From positions 50,766-114,765 of the forward strand of contig CAUTNK010000006.1 of assembly GCA_963540065.1 (NCBI GenBank): a stretch of DNA of 64,000 nucleotides, in the 5' to 3' direction. A model generated the notes under the pieces. It saw only the letters and a list, made by a program, of their open reading frames with translations. It was not told where the DNA came from and made no database searches. Positions 16,120 to 46,874 of the stretch are shown piece after piece; position 1 is the first letter of the stretch, and every line of letters begins with the position of its first letter. A program made the translations under genes and the position numbers. This DNA is from an uncultured Bacteroidia bacterium. Lineage in GTDB: Bacteria; Bacteroidota; Bacteroidia; Bacteroidales; CAJPTX01.

Positions 16120-16135
16120 CATATACCAGTACACC

Positions 16136-18247: not shown

Positions 18248-18496
18248 TATATGGTGTTAATCAATGCTTAGGATGCCTAGGCTTTTACCATGGCTAAAGA
18301 TATCCCTTATCGGTTTTTGGGAAATTAGTTGGGCTTTCTGGCGATTAATGGTTGATCTGAACCCCTTAATGGCGCTCTGAAAAACCGATCACTCTATCTT
18401 TAACACTTAATAGGTATTTTCTGCACTATTGAGGTATAATAGATCCGTTGTCGAAAAAAAGATTTTAATTTGTTAATTGTTCTAGTTAAACTAAAT

Positions 18497-20089
18497 ATGC
18501 GAGAGATGAGAAAAATACTACTGTGTACTGTAAAATGGCTATTAATAAGTCTTTCTATTTTGGGATTTGGTGCATCTGTTAAAGCGGAAGATTATGGTTT
18601 AAAGATTGCAGGGGTTCCAGTTACGAGCGACAATTATACCAATTTAGCTGCACTTGCACCTGGGAAGATTACTCTTGAAAAAGGTGGTTATTTTGCCTAT
18701 GATCCGGAAAATAAAATCCTGACTATGCGTAAGGTAACTATCAAAGCTGATACAGATGAGAATGCAATTTTTAATAGAAACGTAGATGGACTGAGGATTG
18801 TAGTAGCAGGTAAGAATACTTTAGATGCTACTACTTGGGCTGCATTAAATATTTGGCGCCCGACAGTATTGCATGGAACTGGAAAACTTGTAGTTAAGTC
18901 TACTAAAAACTATGGAATTTACCTTGACAAGGCTTCTCTTACAATATCGGATATTGTTGTTGAGGTCTCAGGAAGATACGGAATAAGCGGTGAATCGACG
19001 GGCGAAAAAGTCGAAGTCAATAATGCTACTGTTACACTCAATGGGACTAGTGGCGCTACTGTGAAATTAGACGGTTTTAATTTAGTGGGTTGCCAGATTG
19101 TAGAACCCGCAGGTGCAGCATGGAGTGCTTCAGACCACGCTATAATGGCTGGTGGTGTTAACCCCAAGAAGGTAAAAATAGAGCCTACTCCAAGCACACG
19201 CTATGATCTTTTGATAGCAGGTGTGAAGGTAACTAATAAGAACTGCAATGACTTGAGTGGGATTTCTGATAAAGTTTCTGTACCAAGTGGCGGTCAGTTT
19301 AAATATGATCCTCAGAATAAAATTCTGACACTAAAGGGGGTGACGATAGAGAGCGATACCGAGATACCAATACATAATGAGGGTATTGAAGGTCTGAAGA
19401 TACGGTTCTTAAATGCGAATACAATCAAGTCGGCAAACAAGGAGGGGATATTAATCCTCAAGGATACGGAATTTCAGGGCGATGGAAAGCTTATTGTAGA
19501 AACACCTTCAGAGGCTGGCATTCGTGTAAATAAAAATGCTCAGTTAACGATTTCTACTATTATTATTGAGGTTTCGGGGCAGTTAGGGATATCTGGAACA
19601 AATGCCACAAGTGATGAGTCGCTTAAGCTAAACAAGACAGCAATAACAGCCAAGGGGACAGGCTTTGCTATTGGTAATTTCTCTACGTGTATTCTTAGAG
19701 ATTGCCGAATCGCCTCACCAGCAAAGGGTAAGTGGGACGATACTCAGCGCACAATCGTAGACGCAACAAATACTGTGGCTCAAGAGGTAAAGATCGTACG
19801 TAGTGCACCTTCTCCCAGTCCCACTCCGGATCCTAATGCCGTAGAGGATGCAGTATTTGCAGGAATCTTGGTGGCGCCAAACCCGTTCTCTACTGTATTG
19901 CGCATTTCGAATGTAGAGCGCACGGGTATACGCTATAGTCTGTTCGATGCACAGGGCGTATCGATTCTTTCTGGCGAGTTGCCCGAAGGCGAAATTAGCT
20001 TATCTACCGAGGCTTTACCTGCAGGTTTGTATTTGCTGCAGCTACAAGCTGCCGATGGCGCTATTAAGCATTGGCGCGTGGTGAAGTAA
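18497..20089 (+). CDS. T9SS-secreted protein with a tandemly duplicated ~200-aa domain and a C-terminal sorting domain
   Basis: Signal peptide. Two homologous units at about nt 18590-19198 and 19199-19800 (DYGLKIAGVPVT.../RYDLLIAGVKVT...; YDPENKILTMRKVTI/YDPQNKILTLKGVTI). A Pro-rich linker precedes a Por-type CTD at about 19835-20086 (VAPNPFSTVLRI...LPAGLYLLQL). The start is either 18497 or 18506. Confidence 0.8.
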   Translation: MREMRKILLCTVKWLLISLSILGFGASVKAEDYGLKIAGVPVTSDNYTNLAALAPGKITLEKGGYFAYDPENKILTMRKVTIKADTDENAIFNRNVDGLRIVVAGKNTLDATTWAALNIWRPTVLHGTGKLVVKSTKNYGIYLDKASLTISDIVVEVSGRYGISGESTGEKVEVNNATVTLNGTSGATVKLDGFNLVGCQIVEPAGAAWSASDHAIMAGGVNPKKVKIEPTPSTRYDLLIAGVKVTNKNCNDLSGISDKVSVPSGGQFKYDPQNKILTLKGVTIESDTEIPIHNEGIEGLKIRFLNANTIKSANKEGILILKDTEFQGDGKLIVETPSEAGIRVNKNAQLTISTIIIEVSGQLGISGTNATSDESLKLNKTAITAKGTGFAIGNFSTCILRDCRIASPAKGKWDDTQRTIVDATNTVAQEVKIVRSAPSPSPTPDPNAVEDAVFAGILVAPNPFSTVLRISNVERTGIRYSLFDAQGVSILSGELPEGEISLSTEALPAGLYLLQLQAADGAIKHWRVVK

Positions 20090-24066: not shown

Positions 24067-25338
24067 ATGACTGTCTTGGTTGGGCGTGCGCGTTCTAGTT
24101 CGCAGGACGAGCGTCTGAAGCTAAATCTACTGAAGTTAAAGGCGCTCTTGGACTATACCTCGGAGTTCGGTTTCGATAACTCCGCCGAGGGATTGCTGCG
24201 CCGCTTTAAGAAGATCTTGGAAGAGGATCTCGATATCAATCGCATCCTATACTACTTTCGGGTTGAAGATCAGTGGCGGCTCCTCCTCAACGTGAATTGT
24301 AGCGAGGAAGATGTGTCGGTGATCGATGCAGAACAGATCTTAGCAGCATATACTAGGACTACGATCGTAAGTAGCACCACTACCGTAGGGTTGCGCGAAA
24401 TAGATCTGATCATCCCCGTTTTACAGGGCACGGAGCCGCAAGCTTATGTTTTGTTGGGCGATACTAACGATAGGGTAAGAGGCGTTAGCCCCATCATTAT
24501 GCATTTGATGTTTGCGCAGACCCTTACCTATCTCTCCTACATAGGATTGCGAAATTTGTATGCTATCGAACGACAGAAGCTCGAAACGGAGATTAAAAGT
24601 CAGCTCGCACTAGCTGCCAACCTGCAACGCTCTTTTATCATATCTTCCGACCGACTCCCTAAAATGAAGGGCGTGAAGATTGCGACTTGGTACCAACCGT
24701 TCTATGAAGTGGGGGGCGACTATTTCGATTTTATCGATCTTAACGGCGAAGAGTTGATGTTTTGCGTCTCCGACGTCTCAGGGAAAGGAATCCCAGCCTC
24801 GTTGCTGACAGCAAATTATCAGGCGCATTTTAAGGCACAAAGCGCTGCTGGGGTGCCGCTAGAGGTTATCGTAAGCAAGCTGAACAGACTGGTTTTTGCT
24901 GTTGCGCAGGAGTCAAGTTCCTACATTACATCGTTTATTGGGCGTTACAATACTCGCACACACCTTTTGGAATACGTTAATCTGGGTCACAATGCCCCCT
25001 ACCTCTACGATATGCAGACCGGGCAGGCGCGGCAATTACATTCCGATACCGTGGCGCTGGCTATGCTGGAAGAACTACCCGAAATAAACGTATCGAAAAT
25101 GCTAATACAAGATTCGACCATGCTCCTATGCTATACCGACGGGGTTACTGAGTGGCGAATTAACGGGCGGGAGGTAACAGGATCCGGATTCCTGATAGGT
25201 CTTTTGCATCGATATAAGGATCCCCGTTCGTTGGTTGCTGCTATTTCGTCTAGGATGGAGCATGACGAGTATCTGGGGCTGCGTGAGACTTTTGACGATA
25301 TATCGATTGTTGCTCTAAAATTCTCTCCTACCGAGTAG
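24067..25338 (+). CDS. PP2C-family (SpoIIE/RsbU-type) Ser/Thr phosphatase with an N-terminal sensor-like region
   Basis: 423 aa. C-terminal SpoIIE domain motifs are YEVGGDYFDF, FCVSDVSGKGIPASLL, LGHNAPYLY and CYTDGVTE. The N-terminal ~180 aa is GAF-like. Confidence 0.85.
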   Translation: MTVLVGRARSSSQDERLKLNLLKLKALLDYTSEFGFDNSAEGLLRRFKKILEEDLDINRILYYFRVEDQWRLLLNVNCSEEDVSVIDAEQILAAYTRTTIVSSTTTVGLREIDLIIPVLQGTEPQAYVLLGDTNDRVRGVSPIIMHLMFAQTLTYLSYIGLRNLYAIERQKLETEIKSQLALAANLQRSFIISSDRLPKMKGVKIATWYQPFYEVGGDYFDFIDLNGEELMFCVSDVSGKGIPASLLTANYQAHFKAQSAAGVPLEVIVSKLNRLVFAVAQESSSYITSFIGRYNTRTHLLEYVNLGHNAPYLYDMQTGQARQLHSDTVALAMLEELPEINVSKMLIQDSTMLLCYTDGVTEWRINGREVTGSGFLIGLLHRYKDPRSLVAAISSRMEHDEYLGLRETFDDISIVALKFSPTE

Positions 25339-25878: not shown

Positions 25879-28611
25879 ATGAAAACAGGGCACTCTTCGT
25901 ATTCTAATTTTTCGATGCCCTACCTTTCGCCTCTTGCGCAAGAACTCCAAACGGGAGTTATGACGGGAAACAGCGCCGATCAACCACCCCCCATCTCTTC
26001 CCTCAAGCAACTAGCGCTCCTGATGGCGGGCAAAGCGCAACTGTTGGCACGCTCGATTAGTGCAGTTCTTGAGGACGAACAGAGTAAAACCGCTCAAAGC
26101 CTCTTGCAACAAATCTCGCGTATGAAGACGGTGTTGCGAAGAGATATATCGCACACCGAGTTCGCCGATTGGTACGCCCAAACCCTCATCTACGGCTTGT
26201 TTGCAGCGCGCTATCATGCACCTGATATACAAGAGTTTACCAGAGAAACCGCGGCAAAACAGATCCCTCGCAGCAACCCTTTTCTGCGCAAACTCTTTCA
26301 TTATTTGGGTGCTTTGGATTTGGATGAACGCCTCCTTTGGATTGTTAACGATTTGGTTGCAATCTTTGCTTTAACCCCTATTACAGAGCTTTTTACGGAC
26401 TCGTTGCGGTTGCATAAAGACCCCGTCATGCTCTTCTACGAGGACTTCCTAACAGCCTACAATCCGGTGCGGCGCAAGGCTCGCGGGGTTTATTACACGC
26501 CCGCTCCGGTGGTCGAGTTTATGGTGCGTGCCGTGGACGAGATCCTGATCCGCGATTTCGGCATGCGCGAGGGATTAGCCGACTGTAGTTTTTTGCCCGA
26601 TAAAAGCCACGTACACCGCCTTCAGATACTGGATCCTGCTACGAGTACCGGAACGTTTTTGGTGGAAGTTGTGCGGGCAATACATCGCAAGTTTGAAGGT
26701 CGTCAGGGCGTTTGGAACGACTACGTTAGAGAGCACTTGTTGCCTCGCCTCCACGGCTACGAAATCCTGATGGCACCTTACGCGATGGCGCATCTCAACC
26801 TAGATCACGTTCTTCACGCGACGGGGGCAACGGAACTTGGCAATGCACGCTATGGAATCTATCTGACGAACACTCTCGAGGCGCAGCACCCTGAGTCCAA
26901 CGGCTTGTTTCCGATTGATACCGAGGCGAATGCAGTCAATGCTCTTAAGTGCGATCGCCACGTAATGGTGATGATCGGCAACCCTCCGTACAACGTCAGC
27001 TCGTGCAACAAAAATCAATGGATCGAGGCGCTGATGCAGAGCTACAAAGCGGGTTTGAACGAGAAGAACATCATGGCGCTGTCGGACGACTACATAAAGT
27101 TTATTCGTTATGCGCAGTATCAGATCGAACGTACGGGGGAGGGCGTCGTTGCATTCATCACGAACAATAGCTTTTTGGACGGGGTCATCCATCGCCAAAT
27201 GCGTAAAGAGCTTTTGCGCGTGTTTGATATTATTTACATAGTTAATCTTCACGGTAACAGTCGGTTAAAGGAGAAGACTCCGGAGGGTGGCAAAGATGAA
27301 AATGTGTTTGATATTCAGGCTGGTGTGAGTATTGTTATTTTAGTTAGGAATCAGGATTCTGGGGCGTCACAAACACCGCAAATTCTTTACAGTGAGGTCT
27401 TTGGCGATCATGCGATAAAGAGAAATTATCTCGAAGTATTGCGTATAGCGCGTGATAGTTGGAAACGCTTAACTCCGGTTGCGCCGTATTATTTCTTTGT
27501 GGAAAAGGATTTTGCACTACAGCAGGAGTACGATAACTTCTTTTCGCTGAGCGAGTTATTCGAAACGTATGCTGTGGGAGTGAAAACGCATCGCGACTCG
27601 CTTGTAGTGCATTATACTCGCGGGGAGTGTCAAAAATTGCGCGATGACTTCTTAACACTACCGGGAAGTTCGCTTTGTGCTATTTATACAATACCGCCCG
27701 ATGTTCGCGATTGGACGTTGTCTCGTGCTCTAGCGGATGTAGCGGCTGCTGAGCAAGCGCACGAAGGGCAGATAATTCGGTATAGTTTCCGCCCGTACGA
27801 CTGTCGGCATCTTTATTACACCGGGAAAACGAGGGGCGTGGTATCCTATCCCCGATTTCATCTTTTGGGCGCCTTACTATGCCACGAGAATTATGCTTTG
27901 TGTACGACACGTATTATGCGGGAGAACGATTTTCAGCATAATTTTTTAACGCGAGGGCTGCCCGACAAGGCATATATTTCGGACACGACGTTTACTTTTC
28001 CGCTTTACAAATTCCGCGAAGGTTGGGATTATACTCCGGCAGAAATTGTAGCTGGAGTGACAAAGGAAGGAAAACTGATAGAACTGGAGCTCAACATGCG
28101 CTCAGAAATTCTAGCTAAAATAAGCAAAACAATAGGCGAACCTGTAAAAGGCGAGGACGTGTTTGATTACATCTACGGCGTGCTGCATGATGAGGAGTAC
28201 CGCACGAAATACTTTGAGTTTCTGAAAATAGAATATCCACGCATCCCCTACCCAAAGGATAAAGCAGATTATCAGCGCTTTGTGAGTATAGGAGGATACC
28301 TCCGTCGTTTGCATCTGATGGACGAAAGCTTGGACATCCCGCACACCACAACCTTCGATGTGGCAGGCACCAACCTTGTAGAATGCGTTCGTTATGACGA
28401 AGCAACGAGACGCGTCTGGATCAACGACACGCAGTATTTCGGAGCAGTACCTCTTGCAGTTTGGAATCACTGGGTGGGCTCGTATCAGCCGGCAAGGTTG
28501 TGGTTGCAGAAACGAATCGGTCGCACGCTCAACTACGAAGAGGTCTGCTGGTACCAACGCGTAGTGGATACCATTGCCGAAGAGCTGCGGTTTAGAGCAA
28601 CAAAAGGTTAA
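25879..28611 (+). CDS. N6-adenine DNA methyltransferase with a Type ISP-like C-terminal specificity domain. No nuclease or helicase domain is present.
   Basis: 910 aa. It carries FADWYAQTLIYGLFAARY (a PglX/MmeI/Type ISP-type N-terminal helical motif), LDPATSTGTF (SAM motif I), IGNPPYNV (motif IV), and a C-terminus typical of Type_ISP_C (IYGVLHDEEYRTKYFEFLKIEYPRIPYP ... VWNHWVGSYQPARLWLQKR). Confidence 0.85.
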   Translation: MKTGHSSYSNFSMPYLSPLAQELQTGVMTGNSADQPPPISSLKQLALLMAGKAQLLARSISAVLEDEQSKTAQSLLQQISRMKTVLRRDISHTEFADWYAQTLIYGLFAARYHAPDIQEFTRETAAKQIPRSNPFLRKLFHYLGALDLDERLLWIVNDLVAIFALTPITELFTDSLRLHKDPVMLFYEDFLTAYNPVRRKARGVYYTPAPVVEFMVRAVDEILIRDFGMREGLADCSFLPDKSHVHRLQILDPATSTGTFLVEVVRAIHRKFEGRQGVWNDYVREHLLPRLHGYEILMAPYAMAHLNLDHVLHATGATELGNARYGIYLTNTLEAQHPESNGLFPIDTEANAVNALKCDRHVMVMIGNPPYNVSSCNKNQWIEALMQSYKAGLNEKNIMALSDDYIKFIRYAQYQIERTGEGVVAFITNNSFLDGVIHRQMRKELLRVFDIIYIVNLHGNSRLKEKTPEGGKDENVFDIQAGVSIVILVRNQDSGASQTPQILYSEVFGDHAIKRNYLEVLRIARDSWKRLTPVAPYYFFVEKDFALQQEYDNFFSLSELFETYAVGVKTHRDSLVVHYTRGECQKLRDDFLTLPGSSLCAIYTIPPDVRDWTLSRALADVAAAEQAHEGQIIRYSFRPYDCRHLYYTGKTRGVVSYPRFHLLGALLCHENYALCTTRIMRENDFQHNFLTRGLPDKAYISDTTFTFPLYKFREGWDYTPAEIVAGVTKEGKLIELELNMRSEILAKISKTIGEPVKGEDVFDYIYGVLHDEEYRTKYFEFLKIEYPRIPYPKDKADYQRFVSIGGYLRRLHLMDESLDIPHTTTFDVAGTNLVECVRYDEATRRVWINDTQYFGAVPLAVWNHWVGSYQPARLWLQKRIGRTLNYEEVCWYQRVVDTIAEELRFRATKG

Positions 28612-28615
28612 CTCG

Positions 28616-28623
28616 TAACTTTG
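28616..28623 (+). promoter_or_regulatory. Candidate -7 box TAACTTTG
   Basis: Perfect TAnnTTTG 16 nt upstream of the ATG at 28639. Confidence 0.45.
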
Positions 28624-28638: not shown

Positions 28639-29217
28639 ATGGAGACCAGTTTTTTCGCACACGAGTCGGCTATTATCGACGACGGAGCAGTAATCGGTGC
28701 GGGGACTCGTATCTGGCATTTTTCTCATATCATGGGCGGAGTGCAGATCGGGCAAGAGTGTTCCATTGGGCAAAATGTGTTTATAGCCTCGGGGGTTACT
28801 TTAGGCGATCGCACAAAGGTTCAGAACAATGTGTCTATCTACACGGGGGTTACTACGGAGGCGGATGTCTTTCTGGGTCCTTCCTGCGTATTTACGAATG
28901 TTTGGAACCCCAGAGCGCACATACAACGAAAAGATGAATTCCGTGCCACACATTTAGGACGAGGCGTAACCATAGGTGCCAACGCAACCATAGTTTGTGG
29001 GCATACCATTGGCGAGTATGCTTTCGTGGGCGCAGGCGCTGTGGTTACAAAGGATATCCGTCCGTACGAACTGCTGGTGGGGAATCCGGCGCGTGTGGTA
29101 GGCTGGATGAGTAGATCCGGCGCTCGCTTGCAGTTCAAGCATCAGGAAGCTATTTGTCCGTTGAGTGGCGAGGTGTACCTAGTGGCGGATGGAATCGTAT
29201 TTTTGAAAGAGAATTAG
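28639..29217 (+). CDS. Left-handed beta-helix sugar N-acetyltransferase (WbpD/WlbB-like)
   Basis: 192 aa. Hexapeptide repeats throughout, with the motif VGNPARVVGWMS typical of UDP-2-acetamido-3-amino-2,3-dideoxy-glucuronate N-acetyltransferases. Confidence 0.8.
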   Translation: METSFFAHESAIIDDGAVIGAGTRIWHFSHIMGGVQIGQECSIGQNVFIASGVTLGDRTKVQNNVSIYTGVTTEADVFLGPSCVFTNVWNPRAHIQRKDEFRATHLGRGVTIGANATIVCGHTIGEYAFVGAGAVVTKDIRPYELLVGNPARVVGWMSRSGARLQFKHQEAICPLSGEVYLVADGIVFLKEN

Positions 29218-29224
29218 CAATAAT

Positions 29225-30523
29225 ATGCAGCCTATTTATGAAGCTCTAGCGCAAAAACAAGCAAAATTAGCAGTGATCGGTCTCGGTTACGTCGGGTTGC
29301 CGTTAGCTCTAGCTTTTGCTCGTCATTTTTCGGTTATGGGGTTCGACGTCAATGAATCAAGACTTGAGCAAATGCGACACTCCGAAGACCCGAGCAATGA
29401 GCTCCACGCCGAGGATTTCCGGGGTTGCGATATCCAATTTACGAGTTCGTTGGAACAACTTCGCACGGCACGTTTTTTTGTTGTTGCTGTCCCTACACCC
29501 ATCGATAGCTTTAATAATCCCGATCTGAAGGCGTTGTTAGCAGCGACACGTACAGTGGCAGAGGTTCTGAAAAAAGGCGATTACGTGTGCTACGAGTCAA
29601 CTGTTTATCCGGGCTGTACGGAAGAGGATTGTATTCCGCATCTCGCGACGGTTTCGGGTTTGCAGCCTACCGAGGATTTTAAGTATGGTTATAGTCCGGA
29701 GCGGATTAATCCGGGCGATCGCGAGCATACCCTGCACAACACGCAAAAGATAGTAGCTGCTTGCGACAAGGAAGCGCTTTCGGAGATTGCGAAAGTTTAT
29801 GAGACGGTGATTGAAGCAGGAGTCTATCGCGCCTCGTCTATAAAAGTGGCAGAGGCTGGGAAGATTATTGAAAATACGCAGCGTGATGTCAATATTGCCC
29901 TGATGAACGAACTTTCGATAATTTTCGGTCGCCTAGGCATCAACACGTACGACGTCCTAGAGGCTGCTGCTACGAAGTGGAATTTTCTACCCTTCTCGCC
30001 TGGGTTGGTGGGTGGGCATTGCATTGGTGTCGACCCATACTATCTGGTACATAAGGCGAAAGAGCTTAAGTATCATCCGCAAATTATTACTGCTGGCCGT
30101 TTTATTAATGATTCGATGGGGGGCTACATTGCCAAAAAGGTGGTGAAGCGACTCATCCGGAAAGGGAAAGCCATACTCGGGGCGCGTGCTTTGGTGCTAG
30201 GTATCACGTTCAAGGAAAATGTGGCAGATATCCGGAATTCGAAGGTAGTGGATATTATCAACGAGCTTAAGGATTTTGGGATTTCGGTAGAGGTGGTCGA
30301 TCCAAGAGCCAATACCGAGGAAGTGCAACACGAGTACGGTCTCACGCTACAAAAAGCCCCGACGCCTAGGTACGATATGATTATCCTTGCTGTTGCGCAC
30401 GACGAATACCGTAACTGGACAGAAGACTATATCCGAAGCCTAGGGAATGCAGATCTTCTCTTTGTCGATGTAAAGGGCGTGTATCGCGGAAAAATTACTA
30501 GTTTGGACTATTGGAGTCTATAG
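29225..30523 (+). CDS. Nucleotide-sugar 6-dehydrogenase (UDP-GlcNAc/GalNAc dehydrogenase type, WbpA/WbpO/TviB-like)
   Basis: 432 aa. Rossmann motif (AVIGLGYVGLPLA), catalytic Cys context (GGHCIGVDPYY) and the C-terminal UDP-binding domain. Confidence 0.9.
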   Translation: MQPIYEALAQKQAKLAVIGLGYVGLPLALAFARHFSVMGFDVNESRLEQMRHSEDPSNELHAEDFRGCDIQFTSSLEQLRTARFFVVAVPTPIDSFNNPDLKALLAATRTVAEVLKKGDYVCYESTVYPGCTEEDCIPHLATVSGLQPTEDFKYGYSPERINPGDREHTLHNTQKIVAACDKEALSEIAKVYETVIEAGVYRASSIKVAEAGKIIENTQRDVNIALMNELSIIFGRLGINTYDVLEAAATKWNFLPFSPGLVGGHCIGVDPYYLVHKAKELKYHPQIITAGRFINDSMGGYIAKKVVKRLIRKGKAILGARALVLGITFKENVADIRNSKVVDIINELKDFGISVEVVDPRANTEEVQHEYGLTLQKAPTPRYDMIILAVAHDEYRNWTEDYIRSLGNADLLFVDVKGVYRGKITSLDYWSL

Positions 30524-30645
30524 GCTATAAAAACGCGCGTACGAGCCTCCAAAACCCCTAAAACATGAAAAGAAACATCGCGGCGCATGTAGTTGGATAC
30601 CTTCCCAGTGTTTCAATAGTGCTGTTGGCGGAGTGTGGGAGCTAA

Positions 30646-31893
30646 ATGTTTGGGGAAAGGTATCGTTTTGTGCGTTCGTTGCTCACGCTAGGTGTGGGTA
30701 CCTCTTTTGCGCAACTTATTCCGATACTTTTCTATCCCGTCCTTTCGCGACTGTATACCCCATCCGAGTTCGGCGACCTCGCTCTTGTAGTGGCTCTTTA
30801 CGGCGCTTTAGCCTATTTGTTAGATTTACAGTACGAGCGCGGAATTCTGATCCAAGAGACGCAGCGCAATCTGTTCAATTATGTTATTCTGTGCGTGTGG
30901 CTTGCGCTCGTTATGGCTGTTCTGCTATTTCCTATCCTTACGCTGTTGTGGTACGTGGGCGTTTTCCCGTCCAGTATATCTTTCCTGTGGATAGTTTTTA
31001 TTGTCGTAAACGGGTTGTTGTATACACTTTATAATATTCACATTGAGTGGTGTGTCCGCGAGCGTTTTTTTCGATCGGTTTCTGTGCAGCGTTTTTCGAA
31101 TGCGACTACTACCTCGTTGTTCAAACTAGGTTTTGCCTATTGTCCTAGCCTGAAGAGTGGCGGGCTGATTTACGGAGATCTCCTTTCGCGCCTTTTTGTA
31201 GCATTGATGGCAATAGGGCATTTTGTGCATAAACAACACAAGTACTGGTCTTTGTTTTCGCGAAAACGGACGTTTGCGCTTCTGTATCGGTATCGGGAGT
31301 ATCCGAAATATTGGGTTTTGGGAACATTCTTGTACGACCTAGCGCCCGTCGTGTTCCTTATTCTTTTTATGCGCCGTTTCGGAAATGCCGATGCGGGGCA
31401 TTATTCCATGGCACTACTTTTGCTTAGTGTACCGATTACGCTGCTGGGCAAGGCGCTTTCCGATGCTTTTCGCTCGCAGGCGCAAGAGCTCTATAGGGCA
31501 AGTGGTTCTTGTGCTGATTTTTATAGGCGTACGATGCGTTTTTTTTTGCCCCTTACTGTCCTGATGAGTCTTGCGGGGTATTTTCTTTTACCGTTAGTGA
31601 TTCCGTATATTCTAGGTTCGCAGTGGCTATTGGCTTCCAAGCTTAGTGCAATATTGGCTTTAGGTCTTTTGTTACAGATTGCGAGTATGATTGCAGCAAC
31701 ACTTTGGGTTATTACGCATAGGCATCGGGAACAACTGTTTTTTCAACTGTTTTACTTCCTATTTTATGTAGTGCCGCCCTGTTGTGTGATGTTTTTTGGA
31801 TGCGATACTACGGTTACTATTTGGACTCTCGCCCTGAGTCTGCTCTCATACCATATAGTGCTGATTCTGCGGGGATATATCTTAGCCAAGTAG
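30646..31893 (+). CDS. Polysaccharide flippase (Wzx / PST family)
   Basis: 415 aa, polytopic membrane protein. The N-terminal pattern is GVGTSFAQLIPILFYPVLSRLYTPSEFGDLAL. It contains a T9 run at 31539-31547. Confidence 0.8.
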   Translation: MFGERYRFVRSLLTLGVGTSFAQLIPILFYPVLSRLYTPSEFGDLALVVALYGALAYLLDLQYERGILIQETQRNLFNYVILCVWLALVMAVLLFPILTLLWYVGVFPSSISFLWIVFIVVNGLLYTLYNIHIEWCVRERFFRSVSVQRFSNATTTSLFKLGFAYCPSLKSGGLIYGDLLSRLFVALMAIGHFVHKQHKYWSLFSRKRTFALLYRYREYPKYWVLGTFLYDLAPVVFLILFMRRFGNADAGHYSMALLLLSVPITLLGKALSDAFRSQAQELYRASGSCADFYRRTMRFFLPLTVLMSLAGYFLLPLVIPYILGSQWLLASKLSAILALGLLLQIASMIAATLWVITHRHREQLFFQLFYFLFYVVPPCCVMFFGCDTTVTIWTLALSLLSYHIVLILRGYILAK

Positions 31894-31907
31894 CTTAGCG
31901 TACGCGA

Positions 31908-32732
31908 ATGTCTGGAATAGAGAATTTCGAAGTCTACGGGCGACACTTTTTAGTATACTTCGGCGATCTGTCGCAGATGCAATTCCGTACCCCCGACGAA
32001 CTCCGGGGTTGGTGCAATTGCAAAAAGGTGTTGGGCGTGGCGAACCCCTACGATTTTGATTGTGATAGCAAAACCTCATATTGGTATGTTCTTCAGGATC
32101 GTTTTCGCGAGATAGCGGAGTACGAAAGCACTAACACACGCAGAAAGATTCGCGGCGCTCTTGCTAGGTATCGTTTCGAGCTAGTTAGCAACGATGTCAT
32201 GCTACAGTTGGGTTACTCTATCTACTGCCAAGCATTTCAGCGTTACGCATTGCGTCCGCCGCTTACGGAAGCTAAATTCCGCCAACAGCTCAGAGAGCAA
32301 ATGGTCTATGGTGAGAATTATTGGATGGCCTTTGATAACGATTCGGGGCGCCCAGCTGCTTATATTTCGGTTCTGGTACGTGGTAGAAGTGTTTTTATGA
32401 ATTTTGAACGGCTGAGTTCTGATTTTACGCAACACTCGCCTATCTACGGTTTTATCTACACGCTTACCGAATACTACCTTCGCGATCGCGGCTATTTGTG
32501 GTTAGTGTCTGGTGCGCGTACGGTTCGTGAGCATTCGAAGGTACAGGAGCAAAAAATTACTCGCTTGCAATTCCGAAAAGCCTACTGCCGCTTACAACTA
32601 GAACTTGTTCCGTGGTTGCGAATAGCTACTCGCCTGCTTTACCCGTTTCGTAAGTTGTTGCGTTGGCAAAAGACCTTAACAGCATTTTTGAAACTCTACG
32701 AATATGCCGAAAAATCGCAAAGGGGAGGGTAG
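31908..32732 (+). CDS. FemAB-like / GNAT-fold (Acetyltransf_6-like) aminoacyl- or acyltransferase candidate
   Basis: 274 aa. The pattern NTRRKIRGALARYRFELV ... AAYISVLVRGRSVFMNFERLSSDF ... IYGFIYTLTEYYLRDRGYLWLVSG resembles FemABX-type GNAT domains. This is a motif-level assignment only. Confidence 0.45.
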   Translation: MSGIENFEVYGRHFLVYFGDLSQMQFRTPDELRGWCNCKKVLGVANPYDFDCDSKTSYWYVLQDRFREIAEYESTNTRRKIRGALARYRFELVSNDVMLQLGYSIYCQAFQRYALRPPLTEAKFRQQLREQMVYGENYWMAFDNDSGRPAAYISVLVRGRSVFMNFERLSSDFTQHSPIYGFIYTLTEYYLRDRGYLWLVSGARTVREHSKVQEQKITRLQFRKAYCRLQLELVPWLRIATRLLYPFRKLLRWQKTLTAFLKLYEYAEKSQRGG

Positions 32733-32841: not shown

Positions 32842-32849
32842 TATATTTG
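32842..32849 (+). promoter_or_regulatory. Candidate -7 box TATATTTG
   Basis: Perfect TAnnTTTG 20-38 nt upstream of the candidate starts at 32869 (GTG) and 32887 (ATG). Confidence 0.45.
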
Positions 32850-32868: not shown

Positions 32869-33543
32869 GTGGTGAGTGACGGTGTAATGCACAGTCGGTT
32901 GGAACAGGATTTGAGTCGTGGCGAGGAGCCTATAGAGGTACTCGGCGAGCTACGATATTGTGGTATAATAGACCATCAGACCTTTGTGAATTTCGTGCAA
33001 ATGAGTCTGACAGACAACGAAAATTTACAACAACTCTTGGATTGCTATCAGGTCTATTCGCGTTCCTTTCATATTACGGTGGAGCTCATGCAGAACGTCA
33101 ATAGGCATGGTGCACGCTTGGGTACAGAAAAAATCATCAACGAACAACGCTCTTCCATAGATTCGCTAAATATGAATCCGTATCCGTGCTGGATATCTTA
33201 CGCGCTTTTGGTTACAGAGGCGGAGGTGATCATACGCTGTTCCAACTTTGTTGTAGAGGGCATGCGTGCGAAACTGGAAAAGAAACTCGGTAATAGCGAT
33301 CGGCTAACCCCCGAAGAAAGCCGAATCATCTACATGACACAACTCTCAACAGGAACCTTAAGCGAACGGGGGGGCGCTGGTCTTGGACTTATAGACGTCG
33401 CGCGAAAGAGCTCCGAATTCCGTTGGTGGTTTACACCGTATAATGACGAGAAGACGCTTTTTACGGTAGAATCGCGTCTTAATCGCGCCGATCTGAAAAG
33501 AAAGCAAGAAGAGTTCCGCGCTCGGATTGCTACAAAGAGATAG
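32869..33543 (+). CDS. SiaB-family (GHKL/RsbW-like) protein kinase
   Basis: 224 aa. It carries ITVELMQNVNRHG (N-box-like), ERGGAGLGLIDVARKS (G-box) and a C-terminal EKTLFTVESRL. The start may instead be the ATG at 32887. Confidence 0.75.
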   Translation: MVSDGVMHSRLEQDLSRGEEPIEVLGELRYCGIIDHQTFVNFVQMSLTDNENLQQLLDCYQVYSRSFHITVELMQNVNRHGARLGTEKIINEQRSSIDSLNMNPYPCWISYALLVTEAEVIIRCSNFVVEGMRAKLEKKLGNSDRLTPEESRIIYMTQLSTGTLSERGGAGLGLIDVARKSSEFRWWFTPYNDEKTLFTVESRLNRADLKRKQEEFRARIATKR

Positions 33544-38080: not shown

Positions 38081-39031
38081 CTATGCCTTCCCCATTTCTT
38101 GACGGAAGTATTCGTAAGTCAAGCGAAGTCCTTGGGATAAGTTGACTGTTGGCGTCCATTGCAACTCCCTTTGAGCAAGCGATATGTCTGGACAACGTTT
38201 ACGAGGATCATCTGCCGGTAACGCATCTTGCGACACTCGGAAAGGGACACCAGCAATAGTTGCGATAGTCTTGGCAAGTTCTGCTATCGTACACTCTACA
38301 GGGTTGCCGATATTCAGCGGCGGATAGCAATGCGGCAACTGTAACAAGCGTACCATAGCCTCAATCAAATCTCCGATATACAGGAAACTCCGCGTTTGTT
38401 GCCCATCACCATATAAGGATAGAGGCTTCCCGTGTAGACATTGGGTCATAAAGTTGCTAATCACCCGCCCGTCATCCATTGACATTCTCGGACCATAGGT
38501 GTTGAAAATCCTAATAATCTGCGTCTGGAGTCCGTATTCTCTTTGATAGGCGACACACAGCGATTCTGACACACGCTTCCCCTCGTCATAACACGAACGT
38601 AAACCGATGGGATTCACATTTCCCCAATAAGATTCTCTCTGCGGATGTTGTAGCGGGTCACCATACACCTCACTTGTGGAAGCAAGCAAGACCTTAGCGC
38701 CTGTAGATTTGGCATGTTCTAGCACATGCATTGTACCTAATGTGTTCACTTTGAGTGTATGAACAGGCATGCGCTGATAAACAGACGGCGAGGCTGGGCT
38801 AGCTAAGTGACATATCCAGTCAAAACTCAAACACATTGCTGCAGGTATCCCTAGCGCCACGTCGTGCTCTAAGAAATGTAGTCGCGACGAAGCGAGACTC
38901 TGCTCTAAATTACTCAATCGCCCAGTACACAGATTATCTATAGCATAGACCTCAACGCCCATAGCCAAAAGCGCATCGCATAGATGTGAACCCACAAAAC
39001 CTGTCGCACCGGTCACTAATACGCTCCTCAT
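38081..39031 (-). CDS. UDP-glucuronate decarboxylase (UDP-xylose synthase, SDR family)
   Basis: About 316 aa. It has VLVTGATGFVGSH (GxxGxxG), the catalytic YDEGKR, and a sequence typical of UXS/ArnA-decarboxylase-like enzymes throughout. The Met at 39031 removes the overlap with the upstream stop. Confidence 0.9.
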   Translation of the reverse strand: MRSVLVTGATGFVGSHLCDALLAMGVEVYAIDNLCTGRLSNLEQSLASSRLHFLEHDVALGIPAAMCLSFDWICHLASPASPSVYQRMPVHTLKVNTLGTMHVLEHAKSTGAKVLLASTSEVYGDPLQHPQRESYWGNVNPIGLRSCYDEGKRVSESLCVAYQREYGLQTQIIRIFNTYGPRMSMDDGRVISNFMTQCLHGKPLSLYGDGQQTRSFLYIGDLIEAMVRLLQLPHCYPPLNIGNPVECTIAELAKTIATIAGVPFRVSQDALPADDPRKRCPDISLAQRELQWTPTVNLSQGLRLTYEYFRQEMGKA

Positions 39032-39732
39032 AGCACACATACACATTCCCCCCTCTCATCAATAACCTGCTGCACTCCATCCAGACGAACGACAAATGCT
39101 ATACCGTTATAAAACGGCTCTATACGCAAATAGCGTTGCGTATAAATCGGCTTCCCCGACTTGTCTATATGCATCCAGCCCTCCAAATCCTGTGCTATAG
39201 CATACCGCTTGTGATATACGCCTAATGATTCATAAGCATAAGGATGCAAGTAACTTCCGTCTCGCGTCATATGCCGATAGAGCCCCGAGGATAGGCGCAC
39301 AGACGACACTCCGTCCTTAAAATCGCCACAGTAGCGGTATACCTCTGGATAAATATACGCCCCATTGATATCTATATGCTTATAACCGCCACCAGCTAAG
39401 CGCACAGGACATAAAGCTTCCTGATAATTACCCACCCAAGCATAACTTTGCTCATAGCTCCGAGTACCGTGCTCGTCAATATGATACCATGCACCATCGT
39501 TATCTACCACAGCAGCCCGAGAGCAGTAATAGCCAAAAACTCGACGGTAACGATGGGCATATAACGGCGTGCCCGAAGCATCGATATGATACCCACCCGA
39601 AGCATCTAATACCGCGGCAATGCCCGGGGGGTGGAAATTGAGTACCTCTATAAAATTCTTACCAAAGAGCCTCCGACCTTCGTATAGATAGTGGGTATTA
39701 TCTAACGAGGTCTCTATCTTCTTCCAATCCAT
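39028..39732 (-). CDS. WG-repeat (KWG-like) protein
   Basis: About 234 aa made of 5-6 degenerate units of the form (W/Y)xHID..G..(I/L)Y...Y: GGYHIDASGTPLY, GAWYHIDEHGTRSY, GGYKHIDINGAYIY, LYRHMTRDGSYLH, GWMHIDKSGKPIY. The start overlaps the carbamoyltransferase 3' end by at least 35 nt. Confidence 0.7.
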   Translation of the reverse strand: MDWKKIETSLDNTHYLYEGRRLFGKNFIEVLNFHPPGIAAVLDASGGYHIDASGTPLYAHRYRRVFGYYCSRAAVVDNDGAWYHIDEHGTRSYEQSYAWVGNYQEALCPVRLAGGGYKHIDINGAYIYPEVYRYCGDFKDGVSSVRLSSGLYRHMTRDGSYLHPYAYESLGVYHKRYAIAQDLEGWMHIDKSGKPIYTQRYLRIEPFYNGIAFVVRLDGVQQVIDERGECVCVL

Positions 39733-41389
39733 CAGGTAAATAAAGTTTGTATTCAATAACGACTCCATCTAACCCCATCCGCGGCATAGCTGCAAGTGCC
39801 TCCTCAGGACGGTGTATTATAGGCTCGCCCCGTACATTGAAAGAGGTATTGATTAGTGCTAATACGCCATATTCTTTGTATAGATGTGAAAGCAACGCAT
39901 ACATCAATAGATTATCGTCTTTACTCTCAATGACCTGTATCCGCGCAGTTCCATTCACATGAACCACACCGGCTAATGCTGCACGATATTCGTCTTTGAT
40001 GTGAAAATCCATCAGCATGTACTTAGCCAACGGCTGAATGGGCGTAGCGGAGACCACTTGAACAATCTCCGCTAGCATAATTGGCGCAATAGGACGATAC
40101 CACTCCCGCTTTTTTATGTGAATCGATACATGCTCTGCCAGTTTCTTATCATTGGCTAATGCAAGAAGGCTTCTATTACCAAGCGCTCGCGGTCCCGCTT
40201 CTCCAAAGCCATTGCAAACTCCTAGTACTTTGCCTGCCATAAGGAGCTTAGCGATGTCTGCTATCAATTCGGAAGAAAACTGCTGCTGTGGAGGGATAAG
40301 CCCAAGCGTATTGAGATACGGACTATGTGTTGCAATAGCATTCCCCTTAAGCCATTCACACAAACTCGCCGCACCTAGACTCAATCCACTATCATTGCAG
40401 CAAGGGGGAATATACACTTGTTCGAAAAGACCGGTTTCTAGCAACTGTGTATTCGTTACAATGTTGAGTGCACAACCTCCTGCATAATAGAGATAACGAG
40501 CACCCGTCTGTTGCTGCAATTGACGGAATTTATCAATAACCTCACGCGAGAAGATATGCTGCAAGCTTGCCGCAACATCTTGCCAAAAGGGTATAGTACT
40601 ATCAAACGATTCGATAGATAAACCGAAGGTTGCCGCAATGGAGGCAAATATCTCTTCCTCTCGATGCCAATACTCCTTGAAATAGTTATGCTCGGCAAGC
40701 CACTGCTCAATATCTGCACGATAGTGTCCCCAACAAGCGTACCCCATCAACTTTCCGGGGACACTGGTGTGTTCGCCGGGAGCTGCTCCTATCATTGCAA
40801 AAGAGAGGGCATTGTCGTTGTAGAAGTTTGCCAAATATTTCGTTTCCCAGCCGTACTCCAACAACTGGATTTTTCCACCTTTGTAGAGAAAAGCAGAGAA
40901 GTTGGATAGACTTGCCGCTCCGTCTAGGTGTACCAGTAAGCTATTCTCTTGGAACGCTCCGTAGAATGGCAAGCAGCTAGCGATATGCGCTAACTCTTGG
41001 GAGCAATTGTAGGCTTCGATCTCCCTTCCCTGCCACGTTTCATACTGATAGTACCCCCATGCGGACTCTAAGTTTTCTGTCAGATGTGAGAGTTTATGCG
41101 CCTCGAACCGAAGCTTACCGCCCGAGGTGATAAAAGCGTTTCCGACAAAGGCATTGACACTCACAAGATCAAACTCCTCCGGGAGTTGGAGTAACCCCTT
41201 ATCAATAAGCTCTTCCAAAAAGAGATCGAGCCGATTGTCATATTTACGACGCGTGTAACGTTCCAACTGAAGATACTGCAACACACGCCCATCCTGCATT
41301 AGACATAGATTGTGATCGTGGGTATAGGCGGGATAATGCAACTGGTTTCGGTCTTTGATACCATATATGGCTAATGTAGCTTTACTCAT
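39698..41389 (-). CDS. NodU/CmcH/TobZ-family carbamoyltransferase
   Basis: 563 aa. Motifs HDHNLCL, YYAGGCALNIVTN and LINTSFNVRGEPIIHRPEEAL match the Carbam_trans N- and C-terminal domains. Confidence 0.9.
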   Translation of the reverse strand: MSKATLAIYGIKDRNQLHYPAYTHDHNLCLMQDGRVLQYLQLERYTRRKYDNRLDLFLEELIDKGLLQLPEEFDLVSVNAFVGNAFITSGGKLRFEAHKLSHLTENLESAWGYYQYETWQGREIEAYNCSQELAHIASCLPFYGAFQENSLLVHLDGAASLSNFSAFLYKGGKIQLLEYGWETKYLANFYNDNALSFAMIGAAPGEHTSVPGKLMGYACWGHYRADIEQWLAEHNYFKEYWHREEEIFASIAATFGLSIESFDSTIPFWQDVAASLQHIFSREVIDKFRQLQQQTGARYLYYAGGCALNIVTNTQLLETGLFEQVYIPPCCNDSGLSLGAASLCEWLKGNAIATHSPYLNTLGLIPPQQQFSSELIADIAKLLMAGKVLGVCNGFGEAGPRALGNRSLLALANDKKLAEHVSIHIKKREWYRPIAPIMLAEIVQVVSATPIQPLAKYMLMDFHIKDEYRAALAGVVHVNGTARIQVIESKDDNLLMYALLSHLYKEYGVLALINTSFNVRGEPIIHRPEEALAAMPRMGLDGVVIEYKLYLPDGLEEDRDLVR

Positions 41390-42027
41390 CTACGTTGTAT
41401 TTTGAAACGGACATCTCGTATTTCTTCGATAGATAGCCCACAAGCGCGTAAGTAAGACTCTATGCCCCCTTCTGCCGCTATCAACGCAATCGCCATCAGA
41501 ATAAGCTCTGCCTGGGTATCCTGTGCACTAGCCAAGTAATCTTGCACGATCTCTTCTATCCCAGCCCCAGTTAGCAAAGCAAGAATCGCGATGATACAGC
41601 CTGTTCTATCCTTACCGTAGACACAATGTATCAATACAGCCCCCGGACTTCGGAGTATTGCGAGCAACGCCTGCCGAACTTGCTCGCGACACCCAACAAT
41701 GAAGTAGCGGTAAGCTATATCATTGCCAGAGCCTGTATGAAACTCGCTTTGCTTAAACCATTCGGACTGCTTCCATGGGTCAAATGGGATAGAGATGTAG
41801 TGCACGCCCTCTAAAACCCCGTGTCGATAAGGTTGTTCTATGACTTCACACTCTGCGCGTAGATCAATAATCGTTGCGATACGGTATTCTTGGCACAACG
41901 ACCGACTATGTGCTTGATCTGACAACATACACAACGCAGCACTACGATAAACGCGCTCCATCGCAAACGAAGAGACGTACTTAGAGGCATCGCGAAAGTT
42001 CAAACAATCGTTTAGGTGGTATATCAT
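41386..42027 (-). CDS. Cys-based (CX5R) protein-tyrosine/dual-specificity-type phosphatase
   Basis: 213 aa. P-loop VLIHCVYGKDRTG (HCX5R[T]) in a Y_phosphatase3-like architecture. ATGA overlaps occur at both ends. Confidence 0.8.
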   Translation of the reverse strand: MIYHLNDCLNFRDASKYVSSFAMERVYRSAALCMLSDQAHSRSLCQEYRIATIIDLRAECEVIEQPYRHGVLEGVHYISIPFDPWKQSEWFKQSEFHTGSGNDIAYRYFIVGCREQVRQALLAILRSPGAVLIHCVYGKDRTGCIIAILALLTGAGIEEIVQDYLASAQDTQAELILMAIALIAAEGGIESYLRACGLSIEEIRDVRFKIQRR

Positions 42028-43085
42028 ATCTCAGACGTCTCAACCTTATTTGCCTCTACAGGTCGGCGCATATTACAGCCTTTACACAACGGATACTCCC
42101 TATAATGCTGTAAGAGATGCTGGTATTCAGCACTACAGAGCACCTCGCGTAAGGTACGCTCCGCTATATTACCAAAATCACCCAGCGCTTGGCGTTGCGT
42201 ATCTGGCGCACAGCAAGGCGATATCTTTCCTGAAGCAGAAATCCACAGCTCTTGTCCTAGAAAAGGACAGATATAAGAGTAGTCGAGCACTTGGTTTGCT
42301 TTCTCCTGTAACGGCAATATATTGTCCAAAATCACCATACTGCCATCTGGCTTTCGATAGCGTACTTGCGCCTCTTTTGCTTTCTCTACAATTTCGTTCC
42401 ACTCTTGGATATACTCCGGTTTCGACGCTATTGCATAGTCCTTAATTTCAGCGAAATGTGTCCACAGTTGATGCCCTTTGACGCGATCTACTCCACACGT
42501 CGCAGCCAAGCGTATGATATCTGGTAATTCGTGCATCGTATGGGACATAAAAGTCAACTGTAGCGTAATGCGACAACGATATCCCGTCGCGGCATAATGC
42601 TGGTCTCGCACGGTTATTAGTTTGTGCAAATTGCTCAATGCAGTAGCAAAATTGCCTCGACGCATCACTCGTTCGTAAGTTTCGGCACAAGCGCCGTTCC
42701 AACTAACTTTAACATCCGAGGTCGTTGGCACAATGAGCTTTGCCCAAGCCTCCACGCCACGTCCAGGAAATGTACCATTGGTGGTAAGGTTAATCTTAAG
42801 CCCATACTCCTTTGCCAACTCATAAATACGATCCATGTGGGCATAAAGCAAGGGTTCTCCCATTGTAGAGGGGATAATTGTATCCACCCCGAGTACTGCC
42901 GCCTCGCTGATGAGTCGCTCCACAATAGGGAGTGGCATACGTCGAGAGCGAATGCCTGTTTTAGCAAACAGTTCCGCCTTAAAATGACTATAGGGGCTGT
43001 GCTCCTCGCACATCACACAATTCAGATTACAATCCTCCGGATTGGTGTCTAGCGTTATACGCCAGAGTTTACTTTCGTTGCACAT
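42024..43085 (-). CDS. Radical SAM enzyme with a SPASM/twitch-like C-terminal Cys cluster
   Basis: 353 aa. It has CNLNCVMC (CX3CX2C), GEPLLY, and the C-terminal CPFLGQELWISASGKISPCCAPD ... PLCKGCNM. Confidence 0.85.
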   Translation of the reverse strand: MCNESKLWRITLDTNPEDCNLNCVMCEEHSPYSHFKAELFAKTGIRSRRMPLPIVERLISEAAVLGVDTIIPSTMGEPLLYAHMDRIYELAKEYGLKINLTTNGTFPGRGVEAWAKLIVPTTSDVKVSWNGACAETYERVMRRGNFATALSNLHKLITVRDQHYAATGYRCRITLQLTFMSHTMHELPDIIRLAATCGVDRVKGHQLWTHFAEIKDYAIASKPEYIQEWNEIVEKAKEAQVRYRKPDGSMVILDNILPLQEKANQVLDYSYICPFLGQELWISASGKISPCCAPDTQRQALGDFGNIAERTLREVLCSAEYQHLLQHYREYPLCKGCNMRRPVEANKVETSEI

Positions 43086-46092: not shown

Positions 46093-46202
46093 TATACCTA
46101 ACCAAGCCAAAATCTGCACACTATTGTACGCATCTAAAGGCAACAGCCGAAAAAGAGTAGTCTTGTTATTTACTGCAATCCGCTTCAGGAATAAGGTGGT
46201 GC

Positions 46203-46847: not shown

Positions 46848-46874
46848 GGTGTTTGAATTTATGAAATTAACTTC

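Follow-up and report, generated by a model that had tools for sequence, protein, structure and literature searches.

The stretch of DNA analyzed here (the window) comprises 64,000 nucleotides (nt) of contig CAUTNK010000006.1 (positions 50,766 to 114,765; assembly GCA_963540065.1) from an uncultured Bacteroidia bacterium, a gut-type member of the Bacteroidales, and within the window lie four consecutive genes predicted to encode an N-acetyltransferase (gene 1), a uridine diphosphate (UDP)-sugar dehydrogenase (gene 2), a Wzx-like flippase (gene 3) and a small protein of the GNAT class (gene 4) (Table 1). A first-pass annotation had described these genes as co-directional and closely spaced and had interpreted them as a consolidated Wbp/Vim-like route to the sugar that links type IX secretion system (T9SS) cargo to the cell surface. 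The gene coordinates it gave were exact, with gaps of 7, 122 and 14 nt between genes 1 and 2, 2 and 3, and 3 and 4, respectively. Since genes 1-4 sit inside a co-directional run that spans 20.3-37.3 kb of the window, far beyond the locus, orientation alone defines no unit.

To delimit a possible transcription unit, the sequence was scanned for sigma-70 promoters and intrinsic terminators, with a yield no better than that of shuffled sequences (19 against a shuffle mean of 16, and 15 against 12.4, respectively). In place of this generic scan we used the motif TAnnTTTG, which we take to be the -7 promoter-type consensus of Bacteroidota. On its + strand the window contains only 33 copies of the motif, yet 5 of the 16 gene starts examined have one 20-40 nt upstream. 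One copy precedes gene 1 and another precedes the gene for a DUF6272/SiaB-like protein that follows gene 4 after an intergenic gap of 136 nt, whilst none was found upstream of the starts of genes 3 or 4. These positions provide modest evidence for a four-gene unit that would exclude both the upstream methyltransferase gene and the SiaB-like gene. The four genes are a real module for a surface-glycan precursor, and to judge by spacing and this short motif they are probably co-transcribed. Base composition showed no anomaly across genes 1-4, and a horizontal-transfer signature for genes 3 and 4 was considered and rejected (GC content 0.457 and 0.470 against 0.465 for the window).

The gene 1 product contains hexapeptide repeats (Pfam Hexapep E=9.7e-22, Hexapep_2 E=5.1e-14) and its best relative of solved structure is WlbB (3MQG; E=1.9e-68), with 105 of 184 aligned positions identical (57%) over residues 7-187; runner-up structures (WxcM-like, QdtC and others) scored 1.3e-32 or weaker. 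These matches bear out its earlier description as a WbpD-type enzyme. WlbB and WbpD acetylate UDP-GlcNAc3NA (PMC4031482), and conversion of UDP-GlcNAc3NA to UDP-GlcNAc(3NAc)A is the predicted reaction of gene 1. The gene 2 product, to which the WbpA step had been assigned, carries all three UDPG_MGDP_dh domains (PF03721, PF00984 and PF03720) and passes TIGR03026 (375 bits against a cutoff of 190). Its score of 470 bits against the TviB equivalog NF011729 (UDP-GlcNAc C6 dehydrogenase) is under the cutoff of 592, and scores against ManNAc- and Glc-dehydrogenase models (200 bits or less) are far under this TviB-model score. The WbpA-type assignment holds. Homologues of gene 2 share 75-76% identity in the nearest relatives, 74-75% in two genomes with long contigs referred to below as L029 and L030, and approximately 69-70% in Odoribacteraceae, Acetobacteroides, Butyricimonas, Gabonibacter and Porphyromonadaceae.

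Four steps lead from UDP-GlcNAc to UDP-2,3-diacetamido-2,3-dideoxy-glucuronic acid, and the conserved WbpD(WlbB)-WbpA pair accounts for the first and the last. Compared with the WbpA/B/E/D pathway of Pseudomonas aeruginosa, WlbA/C/B of Bordetella and the Wbp pathway of Porphyromonas gingivalis, the locus thus has only two of four core steps. The WbpB and WbpE steps had been reported as lacking at the locus, and this was found to extend to the whole window. For this comparison a Porphyromonadaceae-labelled locus, L031/L032 (GCA_027666085.1), served together with the solved WlbB structure as reference proxy. WbpB-like, DegT, VimE-like and FemAB queries from L031 found nothing in the window by tblastn, no GFO_IDH_MocA or DegT domain turned up when the majority of the larger open reading frames (ORFs) left in the window were scanned with Pfam and NCBIfam, and neither WbpI nor WbpS was found in the window. 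WbpB and WbpE were also absent from a 15.7-kb contig of another strain that overlaps the window and extends past its right end. By analogy with P. gingivalis, absence of these genes from the window would not mean absence from the genome: there too the Wbp genes are not all in one place, with WbpD (PGN_0002), WbpB (PGN_0168), UgdA (WbpA; PGN_0613), PorR (PGN_1236) and vimA/vimE (PGN_1056/1055) scattered (PMC4031482).

Gene 3 encodes a polytopic membrane protein with about 10-12 hydrophobic segments that matches Polysacc_synt_3 weakly but above threshold (E=2.9e-9, 37 bits against a Pfam cutoff of 23) and no NCBIfam family, in agreement with its earlier designation as a Wzx flippase. It is highly divergent; same-species copies are 99% identical, no homologue above 29% identity was found outside the species, and a metagenome scan returned only one same-species fragment.

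The fourth gene had been annotated as a FemAB-like GNAT protein. Its own sequence gave no Pfam or NCBIfam match at E<0.01, including none to PF02388 or TIGR03019, and reached 13.9 bits against PF13480 (E=0.062), below the cutoff of 22. No match was obtained in a sequence search of the PDB, and a PDB profile search returned only weak matches to RimI acetyltransferases. Whilst a word-indexed search found only 3 clusters, a hidden Markov model search with a four-sequence profile recovered 911 clusters (50% identity) at E<=1e-3, almost all of 260-290 residues and all named 'hypothetical protein' or not named at all. The family that gene 4 represents, with proteins of about 270 residues, has not been described and is absent from Pfam and NCBIfam. 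When members were scanned singly, PF13480 (Acetyltransf_6) was matched by 20 of 114 relatives (best E=3.7e-8) and TIGR03019 (pepcterm_femAB) by 6 of 114 (best E=4.7e-6); TIGR03019 is also matched by VimA, the FemAB-family protein of P. gingivalis (Veith et al., PMC7468200).

To characterize the gene 4 product further, an AlphaFold (AF2) model was generated from an alignment of 114 sequences (pLDDT, the predicted local distance difference test score, 95.9; predicted template modelling (TM) score, pTM, 0.91); an earlier model from 4 sequences (pLDDT 58.5) was discarded. The model consists of a reduced N-terminal lobe (residues 1-65), a full GNAT domain (75-233) and a C-terminal helical hairpin. 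When searched against the PDB with Foldseek, the top match was FemX of W. viridescens (7z6a; E=1.6e-7, probability 1.00, TM 0.58), followed in order by MprF aminoacyl-phosphatidylglycerol synthase domains, Sbb17 and Sba18 (TM 0.53-0.55) and S. aureus FemX. TM-scores, normalised to the query, ranged from 0.50 to 0.58 for the best-matching chains of aminoacyl-tRNA-dependent enzymes, whereas CoA-dependent tandem GNATs (VipF, MAB_4324 and the clavulanate tandem GNAT) gave significant matches at a lower TM of 0.38-0.46. The residues F222-R223-K224 are invariant among the four close homologues of gene 4 (family consensus 'FRKAYC') and stand where, in the model, the final strand of GNAT domain 2 begins. 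FemX and DhpH-C have catalytic aromatic-Lys dyads, F304-K305 and F328-K329, respectively (PMC12945691). The model supports a FemX/FemAB-like fold, and the FemAB-like label therefore held by fold and by the weak profile matches of family members, though not by the sequence of gene 4, which reached no VimA or FemABX profile at threshold and had no VimA-type similarity. The protein probably transfers an aminoacyl (or acyl) group to an amino sugar, and from the higher TM-scores to aminoacyl-tRNA-dependent enzymes we infer an aminoacyl-tRNA as donor.

FemX, FemA and FemB together with MprF, which act on UDP-MurNAc-pentapeptide, lipid II and phosphatidylglycerol, are thus the best structural matches to gene 4, and the likeness may extend to a candidate F-x-K catalytic motif and includes an association of the gene 4 family, too, with lipid-carrier-linked substrates. 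Sequence identity is only 9-14%, with no match to the Pfam FemAB or DUF2156 families. Gene 4 is much smaller than FemA/B, having a truncated domain 1 and no coiled-coil arm, and its setting is glycan synthesis rather than peptidoglycan or lipid. Closer in size are Orf11, Sbb17 and Sba18 (285-288 residues against 274), which carry out Gly-tRNA-dependent amide formation between an amino acid and the sugar amine of streptothrisamine, an amino-sugar compound with which the Sbb17 and Sba18 structures were solved. Orf11 is a precedent for aminoacylation of an amino sugar by a Fem-like enzyme (PMC12945691). These proteins differ from gene 4 in being actinomycete enzymes of secondary metabolism with a small-molecule substrate, and no relationship to gene 4 was seen at the sequence level.

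The distribution of the gene 4 family was determined by scanning species-representative (GTDB) genomes with a four-sequence alignment as query. This identified 22 loci, nearly all in metagenome-assembled genomes (MAGs) of Bacteroidales, with identities of 23-37% and no copy in the set above 37%. A Pfam census of 127 ORFs around 14 gene 4-family loci was dominated by glycan-synthesis functions: GT2 glycosyltransferases (22 ORFs), Bac_transf (11), GT1/GT4 (7), UDP-sugar dehydrogenases (6-7), DegT and TupA-like ATP-grasp proteins (5 each), and Wzx and Wzy_C (4 each). At L002, L008, L011, L013 and L021 the gene immediately upstream of the GNAT encodes a GT2, with stop and start codons overlapping in some. 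At least six Bacteroidales MAGs (L010, L015, L016, L017, L021 and L026; e.g. L021 722-12084) share a conserved cluster encoding, in order, a cytidylyltransferase-like protein, RhaM, a ManC-like protein, a PglF-like dehydratase (645 residues), a 547-residue protein, Wzy_C, a small Bac_transf, GT2, the GNAT, PfkB and EF-G; as far as this cluster is annotated, it contains no aminotransferase. At L002 and L008 the GNAT gene is followed by PglC-like and PglE-like genes (L008 also has a PglF-like gene), the GNAT standing in the slot where a PglD-type N-acetyltransferase is normally expected. Family members with additional domains include P0038 (635 residues), in which the GNAT is preceded by an N-terminal MraY/WecA-type polyprenyl-phosphate sugar-phosphate transferase, P0080 (551 residues), in which it is followed by a C-terminal sulfotransferase domain, and P0077 (541 residues), which has an extra N-terminal part of approximately 300 residues with no PDB relative. 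These contexts indicate that members of the gene 4 family are glycan-tailoring enzymes of ordinary polysaccharide clusters, tied to the lipid-carrier initiation step and specific to neither the T9SS nor the Wbp pathway.

The company kept by its relatives, in GT2, Bac_transf, GT4, Wzx, Wzy, DegT, PglF-like and ATP-grasp neighbourhoods, fits an alternative in which the four genes are an ordinary tailoring module of O-antigen, capsule or exopolysaccharide unrelated to the T9SS, with the GNAT an acetyl- or acyl-CoA-dependent N-acyltransferase and the Wzx flipping a variable glycan. The first-pass annotation had held that grouping with ordinary cassettes would tell against a T9SS role, and for the GNAT the relatives do sit in ordinary polysaccharide clusters. 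The PglD-type slot at L002 and L008 and the extreme divergence of gene 3, typical of variable glycan loci, point the same way, whereas the locus is invariant within its species rather than strain-variable and the unit itself lacks a glycosyltransferase. With regard to the donor, CoA-dependent tandem GNATs are among the significant fold matches and the weak PDB profile matches are RimI acetyltransferases; the best and most consistent structural matches are nevertheless to aminoacyl-tRNA-dependent enzymes, and inspection of the family consensus by eye revealed no Q/RxxGxG/A, the CoA-binding signature of GNATs, after beta4. An ordinary module of this kind is in our view improbable, if a serious contender.

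Comparison with related genomes separated the four genes into two layers. In both L029 and L030, the two nearest relatives with long contigs, WbpD (68% identity) adjoins WbpA and is followed by neither a Wzx nor a GNAT gene. L029 encodes a CHU_C (type B C-terminal domain, CTD) protein; in this T9SS-bearing relative, as in L030, only the WbpD-WbpA part of the module is kept. The DUF6272 (66%) and RHS-like (79%) genes are present in L030 as well, 4.5 kb downstream, and there an intervening PlsY, DAC and FolP block adjoins WbpA that in the window lies 26-30 kb away. Within the species each of the four proteins has 8-14 near-identical variants, source contigs of matching sizes (e.g. 140,620 and 200,919 bp) recur across the four protein clusters, and two other readable strain contigs have the same gene order at 98-100% identity. 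These comparisons indicate a locus fixed within the species, in which the conserved WbpD-WbpA pair has been joined by a Wzx and a GNAT particular to this species.

One interpretation of this layering is that the locus is not one functional unit, the ancestral WbpD-WbpA pair having received an unrelated two-gene Wzx-GNAT insertion that serves a different glycan. The pair without Wzx-GNAT in L029 and L030, rearrangement downstream of WbpA relative to L030 and the rarity with which GNAT relatives co-occur with Wbp genes are all compatible with it, as is the position of the 122-nt gap exactly between the two layers; this gap nonetheless contains neither a promoter-type motif nor a convincing terminator. 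As composition is equal across the four genes, and the same arrangement is present in every strain-level contig readable across the locus, two separate units seem to us rather improbable.

The cargo context was examined next to the Vim system. The presence in the window of a T9SS CTD cargo protein, noted earlier, was verified: a right-handed beta-helix protein carries a type A sorting domain above both cutoffs (TIGR04183, 33.8 bits against 23; Pfam, 29.1 against 27). A second right-handed beta-helix protein had no detectable CTD. T9SS cargo is anchored via a linking sugar that bears an amino acid; linking sugars and their pathways differ between T9SS species, the linker of Prevotella intermedia being different and its alanyl-transfer enzyme not identified (PMC11969387). 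In P. gingivalis, WbpA/B/E/D and VimA/E are needed for both the anionic lipopolysaccharide (A-LPS) and the linking sugar (PMC7468200, PMC4031482). VimA (P. gingivalis PGN_1056; Tannerella forsythia BFO_2568) is a TIGR03019-type protein that sets Ser or Gly on this sugar. Like gene 4 it is a double-GNAT protein of the FemABX-like structural class, both come from T9SS organisms that encode them along with Wbp genes and a flippase, and some gene 4-family members weakly match the same TIGR03019 and PF13480 profiles. Gene 4 differs in its length, which is less by some 60 residues, in the reduction of its N-terminal lobe, in having no VimE-type deacetylase or VimF-type glycosyltransferase beside it, and in having relatives in non-T9SS taxa and ordinary glycan clusters. 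Bacteroides fragilis and B. thetaiotaomicron are without a T9SS (PMC4031482). Contigs with gene 4-family members include those labelled Bacteroides, Bacteroidaceae and Muribaculaceae and one labelled Opitutae. Some of the other taxa are presumed to lack it as well.

A Wbp/Vim-like locus that is genuinely consolidated is L031/L032, where a single co-directional polysaccharide locus (6149-19290) encodes, in order, DegT, a NusG-like protein, GFO_IDH_MocA, WbpA, WbaP, Wzy, Wzx, a VimE-like protein, a hexapeptide acetyltransferase, a FemAB/PF13480 protein and DUF354. It resembles the four-gene locus in combining WbpA, Wzx, a hexapeptide acetyltransferase and a FemAB-family protein in one cluster, and its WbpA is 69% identical to gene 2 and sits beside WbpB-like and WbpE-like genes. 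Unlike the four-gene locus it possesses DegT (WbpE-like), GFO_IDH_MocA (WbpB-like), a NusG/UpxY-like regulator, WbaP, Wzy, DUF354 and a VimE-like deacetylase (NF053580, E=8e-12), and its acetyltransferase is not WlbB-type (30% identity). Its FemAB protein of 331 residues is PF13480-positive and matches TIGR03019 (E=2.7e-12), which gene 4 does not. No significant similarity between this protein and gene 4 was found by BLASTP (best E=2.3) or hhalign (probability 1.1%, E=0.049). On these comparisons gene 4 is not a VimA orthologue, and at most a remote relative in the same superfamily.

These data bear directly on the first-pass reading of the locus as a consolidated route to the T9SS linking sugar. 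In such a route WbpA and WbpD would make the di-N-acetylated uronic acid, the GNAT would take the role of VimA by setting the amino acid that PorU couples to cargo, and the Wzx would take that of PorS. The window has no WbpB, WbpE, VimE-like or PF13480-strong VimA-like gene and no VimF-type glycosyltransferase, and the composition of L031/L032 is different; the term 'consolidated' is therefore not appropriate here. Because a VimE-type deacetylase is missing, pathway logic (PMC7468200) would leave no free 2-amine on the Wbp product for VimA-type aminoacyl transfer. The type A cargo in the window and the CHU_C protein in L029 speak for a T9SS connection, whilst neither of the two closest relatives found has Wzx or GNAT beside the pair, although T9SS cargo is encoded in at least one of them. 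The FemX-type fold of the GNAT and the contact of its family with TIGR03019, the family of VimA, are set against a lack of detectable relationship to the VimA-type protein and the occurrence of relatives on contigs of the Bacteroides, Bacteroidaceae, Muribaculaceae and Opitutae labels. Also in favor are the requirement for Wbp and Vim proteins in P. gingivalis, the variation of linking-sugar pathways among T9SS species, fixation of the locus in its species, and the composition of the unit, which without glycosyltransferase, Wzy or initiating transferase is unlike a self-contained O-antigen or capsule cassette. A role of the locus in T9SS cargo anchoring is plausible. That the Wbp pair feeds the cargo-linking sugar is possible though doubtful, the full consolidated route is unlikely, and a GNAT acting as VimA analogue is, if anything, a little less likely than that.

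The explanation that we favor, and consider somewhat probable, is that a conserved Wbp precursor pair, a flippase and a candidate aminoacyl-tRNA-dependent sugar N-acyltransferase form one surface-glycan module. The middle steps, WbpB and WbpE, would have to be encoded elsewhere, as in P. gingivalis. The GNAT would acylate an amino sugar at a free amine; if FemX, MprF, Orf11/Sbb17 and (presumably) VimA are a guide, the group added is most likely an amino acid donated by aminoacyl-tRNA. Either a nucleotide sugar or the undecaprenyl pyrophosphate-linked unit at the cytoplasmic face would serve as acceptor, and the adjoining Wzx would then flip the lipid-linked unit.

Several observations weigh against this explanation. 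Gene 4 itself meets no curated family threshold, its TM-scores are moderate (0.58 at most), its F-R-K motif is equated with F304-K305 of FemX by position in the fold and not by superposition, and both donor (aminoacyl-tRNA or acyl-CoA) and acceptor are deduced. The 122-nt gap between WbpA and Wzx could hide an unrecognised promoter, co-transcription being suggested by spacing and the short motif alone. A WbpA-like gene (47-49% identical) is near the GNAT at only 3 of the 22 family loci and a full-length WlbB-type gene at none; the GNAT relatives typically pair with GT2, Bac_transf, DegT and PglF-like genes instead of Wbp genes. Since they so rarely accompany Wbp genes, the acceptor of gene 4 may not be the Wbp product.

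For the decoration of surface glycans with amino acids, T9SS-related or not, the widespread but unannotated FemX-fold family found in glycan loci of Bacteroidales offers a candidate, and the present locus is one of few places where a family member stands beside Wbp genes. A bolder proposal, which we rate as very unlikely, is that the family constitutes a second, VimA-independent class of aminoacyl-tRNA-dependent transferases that load a free amino acid onto the amino sugar of a lipid-linked glycan, in T9SS Bacteroidales providing the alpha-amine nucleophile through which the PorU sortase couples the glycan to cargo C-termini. Were this so, the class would explain linking sugars of species without VimA, such as the N-alanyl-deoxyhexose linker of P. 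intermedia, and a family member would here have been recruited beside the conserved WbpD-WbpA pair and a dedicated flippase. If the family consists of plain acetyltransferases, the locus would be an ordinary glycan-tailoring module.

Table 1. Features of the four-gene locus and of its surroundings (window coordinates unless a contig is named)
Feature	Position	Strand	Length (residues)	Remark
Gene 1, WlbB/WbpD-type left-handed beta-helix N-acetyltransferase	28639-29217	+	192	
Gene 2, WbpA/WbpO/TviB-class UDP-N-acetylhexosamine 6-dehydrogenase	29225-30523	+	432	
Gene 3, divergent Wzx-like MOP-family flippase	30646-31893	+	415	
Gene 4, FemX-like double-GNAT family member	31908-32732	+	274	
TAnnTTTG motif	28616..28623	+		Putative transcription-unit start, 23 nt upstream of gene 1 start and just past methyltransferase stop at 28611
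TAnnTTTG motif	32842..32849	+		Putative separate promoter and downstream unit boundary, 27 nt upstream of DUF6272/SiaB-like gene
Right-handed beta-helix protein with T9SS type A sorting domain	18470-20089	+		
Right-handed beta-helix protein	58131-59363	-	410	
Methyltransferase	25879-28611	+	910	
Partner-switching-type genes, window	24067-25338 and 32869-33543			
Partner-switching-type genes, L029	8176-11478			
Partner-switching-type genes, L030	14829-15509			
BamG-family protein	5087-6382	+	431	
ORF adjoining BamG-family gene	6408-7760		450	
Second glycan-type cluster	38081-44361	-		
NAD-dependent epimerase/dehydratase	38081-39046	-		In second glycan-type cluster
WG-repeat protein	39028-39768	-		In second glycan-type cluster
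Carbamoyltransferase	39698-41389	-		In second glycan-type cluster
Tyrosine-phosphatase family	41386-42027	-		In second glycan-type cluster
Radical SAM/SPASM	42024-43085	-		In second glycan-type cluster
GT4	43069-44361	-		In second glycan-type cluster
Mobile/defence-type stretch	44770-54291			
DUF4143/AAA_14 ATPase	44770-46092			In mobile/defence-type stretch
RhuM family	48517-49560			In mobile/defence-type stretch
AAA-ATPase_like + PDDEXK_9	52675-54291			In mobile/defence-type stretch

The genes flanking the locus were also as first described. Upstream, the orphan methyltransferase combines an N6-adenine methyltransferase with a Type ISP C-terminal specificity domain (Type_ISP_C) and has no nuclease or helicase part; downstream, the SiaB-like kinase is a DUF6272 protein that scored 53.9 bits against SiaB_fam_kinase, below the cutoff of 85. 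No evidence was found for a functional link of either gene to the locus, and both appear to be neighbours and not parts of the unit. A SpoIIE/PP2C phosphatase and a DUF6272/SiaB-like kinase (below the NCBIfam cutoff) recur near WbpD-WbpA in three related genomes, a recurrence of partner-switching-type genes that could be plain synteny. The methyltransferase of the window is 94% identical to that of strain contig L001, whose neighbouring genes are 99-100% identical, and the differences cluster in residues 101-200; the nucleotide alignment is interrupted for approximately 125 nt, at about 26291-26416.

A mobile/defence-type stretch separates genes that are neighbours in L030; a Na/sulfate-citrate symporter and an M16 peptidase are interspersed among its ATPase, RhuM and PDDEXK_9 genes. 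Near the left end of the window, an ORF without match in Pfam or NCBIfam adjoins a gene whose product matches the NCBIfam BamG family of beta-barrel assembly (308 bits against a cutoff of 250) and no Pfam family. The second glycan-type cluster, on the opposite strand to genes 1-4, contains a GT4 glycosyltransferase and a carbamoyltransferase, and its product may be a carbamoylated sugar.

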